Virus record (IMG/VR): IMGVR_UViG_3300037264_004862
Coordinates: 1-64,000 of that record
Strand: one strand, 5' to 3'
DNA length: 64,000 bases
DNA from: a virus
This document shows positions 6,910-7,155 of the stretch, one piece after another; within the stretch, counting starts at the first letter, position 1; the number at the start of each line of letters is the position of its first letter. Below the pieces are notes generated by a model. It was not told where the DNA came from. It made no database searches and saw nothing but the letters and a program-made list of their open reading frames with translations. Both the position numbers and the translations under genes were made by a program.

Positions 6910-7155
6910 CTAACTTAGGCCATCAATCTCATGTTTCCAAGCTTTCGGTGGATCGACGGGCAGCCCAGCCTCTAGGCTTTGCCATCCTGGTCCAACCTCG
7001 CCCGCCCCAGGCGCAACGGTGACAAGCATTCAAGTGCGCTGGTCAAGCCAGCACACACGATCTTGGCCCTCGTCGTAGAGGCCAACAATCACGGTCCCGT
7101 CCCTCGGGGCGATCTCCATTGAATGCCAGTCACTCAGTGGGTAAACGTGCCTCAA
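6910..7155 (-). CDS. DUF551-like protein with in-frame UGA (candidate selenoprotein)
   Basis: DWHSMEIAPRDGTVIVGLYDEGQDRVCWLDQRT-UGA(7030-7032)-MLVTVAPGAGEVGPGWQSLEAGLPVDPPKAW; the WxxxExAPxDGT and GW...PxxW halves of DUF551 straddle the UGA; start is TTG 7155 or ATG 7119. Confidence 0.7.
6995..7020 (-). promoter_or_regulatory. bacterial SECIS-like stem-loop after UGA 7030
   Basis: ACC-GUUG-CGCCU[GGGGC]GGGCG-A-GGU; first loop G at +22 after the UGA. Confidence 0.55.

Follow-up and report, generated by a model that had tools for sequence, protein, structure and literature searches.

Does the in-frame TGA of a small phage gene end a protein, mark a lesion or encode selenocysteine (Sec)? The question is raised by positions 7155..6910 (minus strand) of a 64,000-nt stretch of DNA, referred to here as the window, which makes up the opening 64 kb of an IMG/VR virus record of 122,824 bp. 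The record originates from sediment metagenomes, represents an uncultured phage and has a CheckV completeness of 34%. The gene lies in the first ~15 kb of the window, a part that carries small genes, mostly on the minus strand, and that differs in composition from the rest (G+C of ~0.50 over 1-15000, with 0.62 at 14-15 kb, against 0.32-0.40 over 15000-64000).

A first-pass annotation made from the sequence had joined the two halves flanking the TGA into one DUF551-like domain, had placed Sec at the junction with a SECIS-like hairpin behind it and had extended the idea to a small phage selenoproteome. From comparisons with homologous proteins and genes, we estimate a probability of about two in three that the TGA at 7032..7030 is a Sec codon and that the gene encodes one 81-residue DUF551-like protein with a Cys loop, in which case the phage would probably make a selenium-containing protein with the machinery of its host. 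This reading is favored because of the Cys column in the protein family and a second homolog with TGA at the same codon, and not because of the hairpin in the window.

A single in-frame TGA within one open frame

Translation of the minus strand from 7173 to 6907 gave ...DWHSMEIAPRDGTVIVGLYDEGQDRVCWLDQRT-TGA-MLVTVAPGAGEVGPGWQSLEAGLPVDPPKAWKHEIDGLS-TAG, with a single in-frame TGA, and the interrupted frame was found as it had been described. From the TTG start, the full read-through protein of the gene is MRHVYPLSDWHSMEIAPRDGTVIVGLYDEGQDRVCWLDQRT-TGA-MLVTVAPGAGEVGPGWQSLEAGLPVDPPKAWKHEIDGLS, and the sequence across the junction would be ...DQRT-U-MLVTVAPGAGEVGPGWQSLEAGLPVDPPK if the TGA were read as Sec. 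Translation might instead start at the ATG at 7119, though the conserved residue W10 would then be lost. A further ATG follows directly on the 3' side of the TGA. The next gene begins 12 nt past the TAG and is preceded by a strong GGAGG. The features discussed here are collected in Table 1.

Table 1. Positions of the TGA-interrupted gene, its hairpins and other features considered
Feature	Position	Strand	Remarks
Whole read-through frame	6910..7155	-	81 codons including the TGA, then TAG stop at 6912..6910; TTG start at 7155
N-terminal half	7033..7155	-	41 codons; DUF551-type motif W-x-x-M-E-x-A-P-R-D-G-T
In-frame TGA, proposed Sec codon	7030..7032	-	At the nearly invariant Cys column; same in the independent run
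C-terminal half	6913..7029	-	39 codons; Gly-rich loop VAPGAGEVGPGW and LPVDPPKAW
Long interrupted hairpin enclosing the apical stem-loop	6983..7029	-	-13.8 kcal/mol on 47 nt; starts directly after the UGA; not better than shuffles
Apical stem-loop, candidate SECIS core	6999..7013	-	CGCCU-GGGGC-GGGCG; first loop G 22 nt after the A of the UGA
Candidate 1	9311..9703	-	130-codon frame; TGA at 9547..9545; 8-bp hairpin with loop GUUG at 9531..9512
tRNA with anticodon CAU	13431-13516	-	86 nt; long variable arm; Rfam tRNA-Sec score of 29 bits against a cut-off of 47

The TGA lies on a nearly invariant cysteine column

Neither the read-through protein nor either of its halves had a match in Pfam (at E ≤ 10) or PHROGs. 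The single full-length relative that a word-based search brought up, P0001 (83 aa, 62% identical), has Cys opposite the TGA. When a profile of the window protein and P0001 was searched against 1.84 billion representatives, 194 clusters were obtained at E ≤ 0.001 and 57 at E ≤ 1e-10. The best 150 of these 194 proteins were aligned to the profile together with P0001, and 139 of the resulting 151 rows had Cys in the column of the TGA. The 12 remaining rows comprised three of an unrelated repeat protein (P0066), the two proteins P0137 and P0149, and seven genuine relatives in which this position is R, H, H or S or the loop is deleted, so that the Cys is not indispensable everywhere.

Both halves of the gene align to one domain in the family members, the consensus of which is W-x-x-M-E-T-A-P-R-D-G-T ... 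I-R-W-x-E-x-R-x-C-M-L-x(4-6)-G-x-G-x-F-G-P-G-W ... L-P-V-D-x-P-x-x-W. The placement of the TGA is above chance in two respects, as it coincides with the single nearly invariant Cys of the family and as a second relative has TGA at this very position.

The database proteins P0137 and P0149 have as their first residue the very Met that follows the Cys column, which would fit further TGA forms. The Cys-loop module was also seen as an insertion in a phage protein of ~250 aa with a conserved RPSIFMPRWA motif (P0061, P0137 and P0149); an alignment of these three proteins found 80 loci with the outer domain in viral contigs, none of them with the Cys-loop module. In GenBank phages, no family member was found by tblastn with the window protein and P0016, and a protein-pattern scan of genome contigs gave no relatives. 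The family was likewise found in none of four bacterial genomes reached via the loci and in none of 401 genomes of one phylum, counts that carry no information on its absence.

A second homolog with TGA at the same codon

A DNA scan of metagenomes returned two relatives, one with TGA at the column (L004) and one with TGT (L005), and L004 was the only TGA homolog found in DNA besides the window gene (n = 1). It is a 1,414-nt contig with 68% G+C and a coverage of 3 by its name, and its product is ~50% identical to the window protein. The sequence reads ...VVRWADDRW-TGA-MAPSPWNQLGPGWESVAEGLPVDPPNAWR... in one frame without any other lesion, and the TGA falls exactly on the Cys column of the family. 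With 54-60% identity, eight Cys forms are nearer to the window protein than L004 is (50%), and Cys and TGA forms therefore interleave, as Cys and Sec forms do in known Sec/Cys families. In the segment GPGW...LPVDPP.AW on the 3' side of the TGA, most of the residues shared by the window gene and L004 are encoded by different synonymous codons, which shows that selection has acted at the protein level on the part downstream of the TGA.

Further TGA forms were sought with DNA patterns. Two TGA-specific patterns matched two and four stretches of the viral contigs with no relatives among them, and the same pattern with TGC matched 17 stretches including four true relatives. In genome contigs, at least 120 stretches matched the TGA pattern, with no relatives among the matches listed. 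Of two protein-pattern scans of the viral contigs, one gave no relative and the other a classical DUF551 gene (L006) without the Cys loop.

As judged from these alignments, it is very unlikely that random nonsense changes struck one codon twice in genes that are otherwise intact, and a Cys/Sec exchange would directly explain the TGA at one column in both the window gene and L004. The proposal of a Sec codon inside one DUF551-like domain was thus strengthened by the alignment of homologs, through the Cys column as well as through an independent homolog that keeps the TGA.

The foremost rival explanation is a nonsense mutation or a split gene, in which a TGY codon changed to TGA and left either a young pseudogene or two halves (41 and 39 residues) that are made separately. 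In the split version, the second half would arise by re-initiation at the adjacent AUG and the two halves would work without the Cys. Although the TGA is one base away from TGC and TGT, this explanation needs the same codon to have been struck in two relatives of ~50% identity, neither of which has another lesion. The ATG deserves particular attention, because it directly follows the TGA in L004 as well as in the window and two peptides are possible. However, Met follows the Cys in 110 of the 151 aligned rows, so that the ATG is ancestral and gives no sign of an evolved restart, and no Shine-Dalgarno-like sequence was seen upstream of it in the window. The first-pass annotation had raised this ATG as a caveat, with reinitiation as an alternative; its position was correctly given. 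The seven relatives without Cys and the unexceptional hairpin of the window (see below) would also suit a broken gene, whereas the half downstream of the TGA is the more conserved one in comparisons with both P0001 and L004, and the sequence of the gene was unchanged between runs dated 2020 and 2025, five years apart. Altogether we consider a broken or split gene improbable.

Hairpins downstream of the UGA

Hairpins were called by a fixed rule with criteria from the bacterial SECIS (bSECIS) literature, namely a contiguous stem of at least 4 bp, a loop of 3-14 nt with a G in its first two bases, and a loop start 16-37 nt after the UGA. The apical stem-loop with its lower ACC/GGU stem was present in the window gene, and the first loop G was at +22 as had been stated. 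Its folding energy was -7.1 and -7.6 kcal/mol, or -8.5 kcal/mol when folded as 6 bp with a loop GGG (loop at +22/23). On the same strand of the first 15 kb, an equal or better hairpin was found at 7-12% of sampled positions and at 10-15% of TGA triplets, and the RNAfold z-scores of the window hairpin were +0.47 and +1.05. Taken alone, the window hairpin is no evidence, being ordinary for its G+C.

In L004, an 8-bp stem with the loop GUC at +29 had an energy of -13.1 kcal/mol, a value reached by 1.5-1.8% of the L004 contig itself. The Cys-form loci L005, L012, L016, L017 and L019 reached only -1.4 to -6.0 kcal/mol (16-63% of their own backgrounds). By the fixed rule, both TGA forms had a hairpin and the five Cys forms had none, a small sample of two against five. 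The window and L004 hairpins differ in both sequence and spacing (+22/23 against +29), so that neither is conserved, and what the two TGA forms have in common is that a hairpin is there at all. The Rfam SECIS families, the models of which are clade-specific, gave no match around the TGA of either the window gene or candidate 1, even at E ≤ 10.

The distribution of hairpins also bears on a read-through without selenium, in which a near-cognate tRNA (Trp or Cys) would read the UGA at a low level, or a SelB-like route would insert Cys, yielding full-length protein in a small and perhaps regulated amount. No stop codon is leakier than UGA, but Trp at the invariant Cys column would probably be inactive and near-cognate insertion of Cys is rare, and hairpins restricted to the TGA forms fit a SelB-type signal. 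Cys inserted by a dedicated tRNA has some precedent in the tRNASec-like Cys tRNAs described in passages of PMC5389517, and Sec and Cys at this site are indistinguishable from the present sequence data. We rate a selenium-free read-through as quite unlikely.

Genetic code, sequence support and selenocysteine machinery

The genetic code of the phage is standard and TGA is an ordinary stop codon. TGA terminated 59 of 167 large non-overlapping ORFs picked from the phage record, and open frames of the standard code occupied 0.9-1.0 of the genome beyond 30 kb. Since the code is standard, any decoding of the TGA at 7032..7030 must be site-specific. A reassigned code with TGA as sense throughout was rejected as scarcely credible on the strength of this coding coverage and of the TGA-terminated ORFs, as reading TGA as sense lengthened open frames only somewhat, as it does in any genome, and no suppressor tRNA was found.

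An assembly or sequencing error at the Cys codon, which might be suspected in a metagenome assembly and in a contig with a coverage of 3 such as L004, was rejected as having next to no probability, because an independent sediment run from another study contained an identical stretch of 520 nt (6661..7180, depth 87, no differences, TGA included), the possible source run covered the TGA at a depth of 28.8 with no variant listed, and the unrelated contig L004 has TGA at the same column. The TGA was thereby confirmed both in translation and in an independent run. The latter was made from a metatranscriptome library, and its evidence for the TGA gene consists of contigs, which cannot show transcription. 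Contigs of this run varied in the neighboring small genes: 149 nt between 7180 and 7330 were skipped in one form, 14 nt were inserted behind 7220 and 16 nt were missing at 7559. The TGA gene itself was unchanged.

Neither SelA nor a SelB wing domain was found in the 122-kb record, 34% complete by CheckV, and no tRNA in it exceeded the tRNA-Sec cut-off. The only tRNAs in the record were Lys(UUU), Met(CAU) and Gly(UCC), and an Rfam scan at the gathering score returned two tRNAs and nothing else. The CAU tRNA, which has a long variable arm, was considered as a UGA decoder and rejected, as it folds into an ordinary 7/5 cloverleaf and scores below the tRNA-Sec cut-off (Table 1).

Candidate 1 and the proposed selenoproteome

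The first-pass annotation had pointed to another TGA-interrupted frame, candidate 1, with a hairpin at the same spacing, and the two loops do share the +22 distance. The candidate 1 hairpin had an energy of -13.8 kcal/mol, which was reached by 1.4-2.1% of the background, and it is not terminator-like, since no U-run follows it. The word-based search found no homolog of candidate 1, so that the Cys-column test is inapplicable there. The 25 codons from its TGA to the next in-frame start (TTG) stay open.

The idea of a selenoproteome gained no support from a count of hairpins behind stop codons. Across the whole record, hairpins of -8.5 kcal/mol or better followed 8 of 142 flanked TGA codons, 7 of 120 TAA codons and 3 of 73 TAG codons, which is no enrichment. 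Two further TGA codons with long flanking frames, at 17775 (minus strand) and 66102 (plus strand, beyond the window), are followed at a similar distance by hairpins of -16.2 and -14.6 kcal/mol; both TGA codons may simply end genes, with stems resembling terminators behind them.

A wider reading would make this a jumbo phage with at least two early-like selenoprotein genes (7155..6910 and 9703..9311), both with loops at +22 tuned to one host SelB, and would imply several switches of the DUF551-like Cys-loop family between Cys and Sec, in different phages. We regard it as doubtful. If true, Sec would be a recurrent resource of bacterial viruses and early proteins would depend on the selenium supply of the host. 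The tie of the gene to host selenium or redox state that had been suggested is a conjecture.

Relationship to DUF551 and predicted structure

A profile search with the N-terminal half led to classical DUF551-type proteins, which made up the best 120 matches listed; 34 of these carry PF04448 by our own count, and none of the 120 ends at the TGA/Cys column. An hhalign comparison of the family profile (A6) with these 34 proteins, which were chosen from the N-half matches, gave a probability of 98.7% (E = 4e-16, 70 columns). The Pfam model PF04448 itself was reached, at its gathering score, by 2 of 10 family members, at the C-terminal end only, and not by the window protein. The label DUF551-like given in the first-pass annotation therefore holds as remote homology and not as a Pfam match of the window protein. 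On these profile comparisons, the family is best placed in the DUF551 superfamily as a branch with a Cys loop, and not in Pfam DUF551 itself.

An AlphaFold2 model based on an 84-row alignment predicted a small beta-rich domain with a mean pLDDT of 81.9, falling to about 60 around residues 41-50. The Cys/Sec site was placed at the start of this lower-confidence Gly-rich loop. Foldseek found no match in the PDB at E ≤ 0.001 (best E > 0.8), and the best VIA-align Z-score was 3.7, below the meaningful level, for Tudor/SH3-like barrels. With only such weak Tudor/SH3-like resemblances, the fold offers no clue to function. For a single nearly invariant residue in a loop modeled as flexible, a redox or nucleophilic function may be suspected. 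Passages of PMC10834534 describe an effect of YfdS, a DUF551 protein, on the resistance to oxidative stress, which we take as a loose hint only.

Proposed decoding of the UGA

We infer that the residue at the UGA is Sec itself, which would replace the single nearly invariant Cys of the family at the start of the Gly-rich loop and might act there as a redox or nucleophilic selenol. The phage would have to infect a Sec-competent host, whose SelB with Sec-tRNASec would bind the stem-loop of the phage mRNA just 3' of the UGA and, with the apical loop about 22 nt downstream, would hand Sec to the ribosome. In a host without selenium or SelB, the ribosome would stop at the UGA and only the 41-residue N-terminal half would be made.

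If confirmed, the Sec codon would add a phage-specific selenoprotein family and a phage mRNA able to recruit host SelB, and it would mark the invariant Cys of the uncharacterized DUF551-like domain as a reactive center, giving a first handle on its function. Gene callers split such UGA genes into two fragments, and as P0137 and P0149 start exactly after the Cys column, phage annotations may hide more cases.

Comparison with known systems

The prototype of a bacterial selenoprotein gene is fdhF of Escherichia coli, in which a SECIS within the open reading frame, with GU in its loop, is read by SelB. The window gene resembles bacterial selenoprotein genes such as fdhF in having an in-frame UGA where homologs have Cys and a stem-loop within the open reading frame just 3' of the UGA, with a G opening the apical loop about 20-30 nt downstream. 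Its family also resembles bacterial selenoproteins in the interleaving of Cys and UGA forms. It differs from fdhF in being phage-borne, in having a loop GGGGC or GGG without GU, and in that its hairpin is unexceptional, has no Rfam SECIS match and is not accompanied by Sec machinery in the record.

Classical DUF551 proteins (PF04448), including YfdS of the prophage CPS-53 and Ea22 variant V2, appear in passages of PMC10834534 as small phage or prophage proteins, which the window protein is as well. The two have in common an N-terminal W-x-x-x-E-x-A-P-x-D-G-T and a C-terminal P-x-x-W. In contrast to classical DUF551, the window protein has an inserted loop, C-M-L-x(4-6)-G-x-G-x-x-G-x-G-W, and the Cys of this loop is absent from the classical proteins.

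In a full-text literature search, which covered few subscription journals, no paper on a bacteriophage selenoprotein gene was found. In the matching passages of PMC5029168 the word 'phage' occurs only as part of 'phagedenis', and in those of PMC5389517 phages are mentioned solely for the unusual Ser and His tRNAs that they carry. Viral selenoproteins are named in passages of PMC8310308 for only two poxviruses, as the glutathione peroxidases of molluscum contagiosum virus and fowlpox virus. According to the same passages, these enzymes are encoded by viral genes with a UGA-Sec codon that rely on host Sec machinery, as is proposed here for the window gene, and the SECIS of the fowlpox enzyme lies within the coding region, like the candidate hairpin of the window. 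The poxvirus enzymes of PMC8310308, as far as these passages describe them, are captured cellular genes of eukaryotic viruses with a eukaryotic SECIS, whereas the window gene belongs to a virus of bacteria and to a phage-specific family and has a candidate signal with bacterial geometry.
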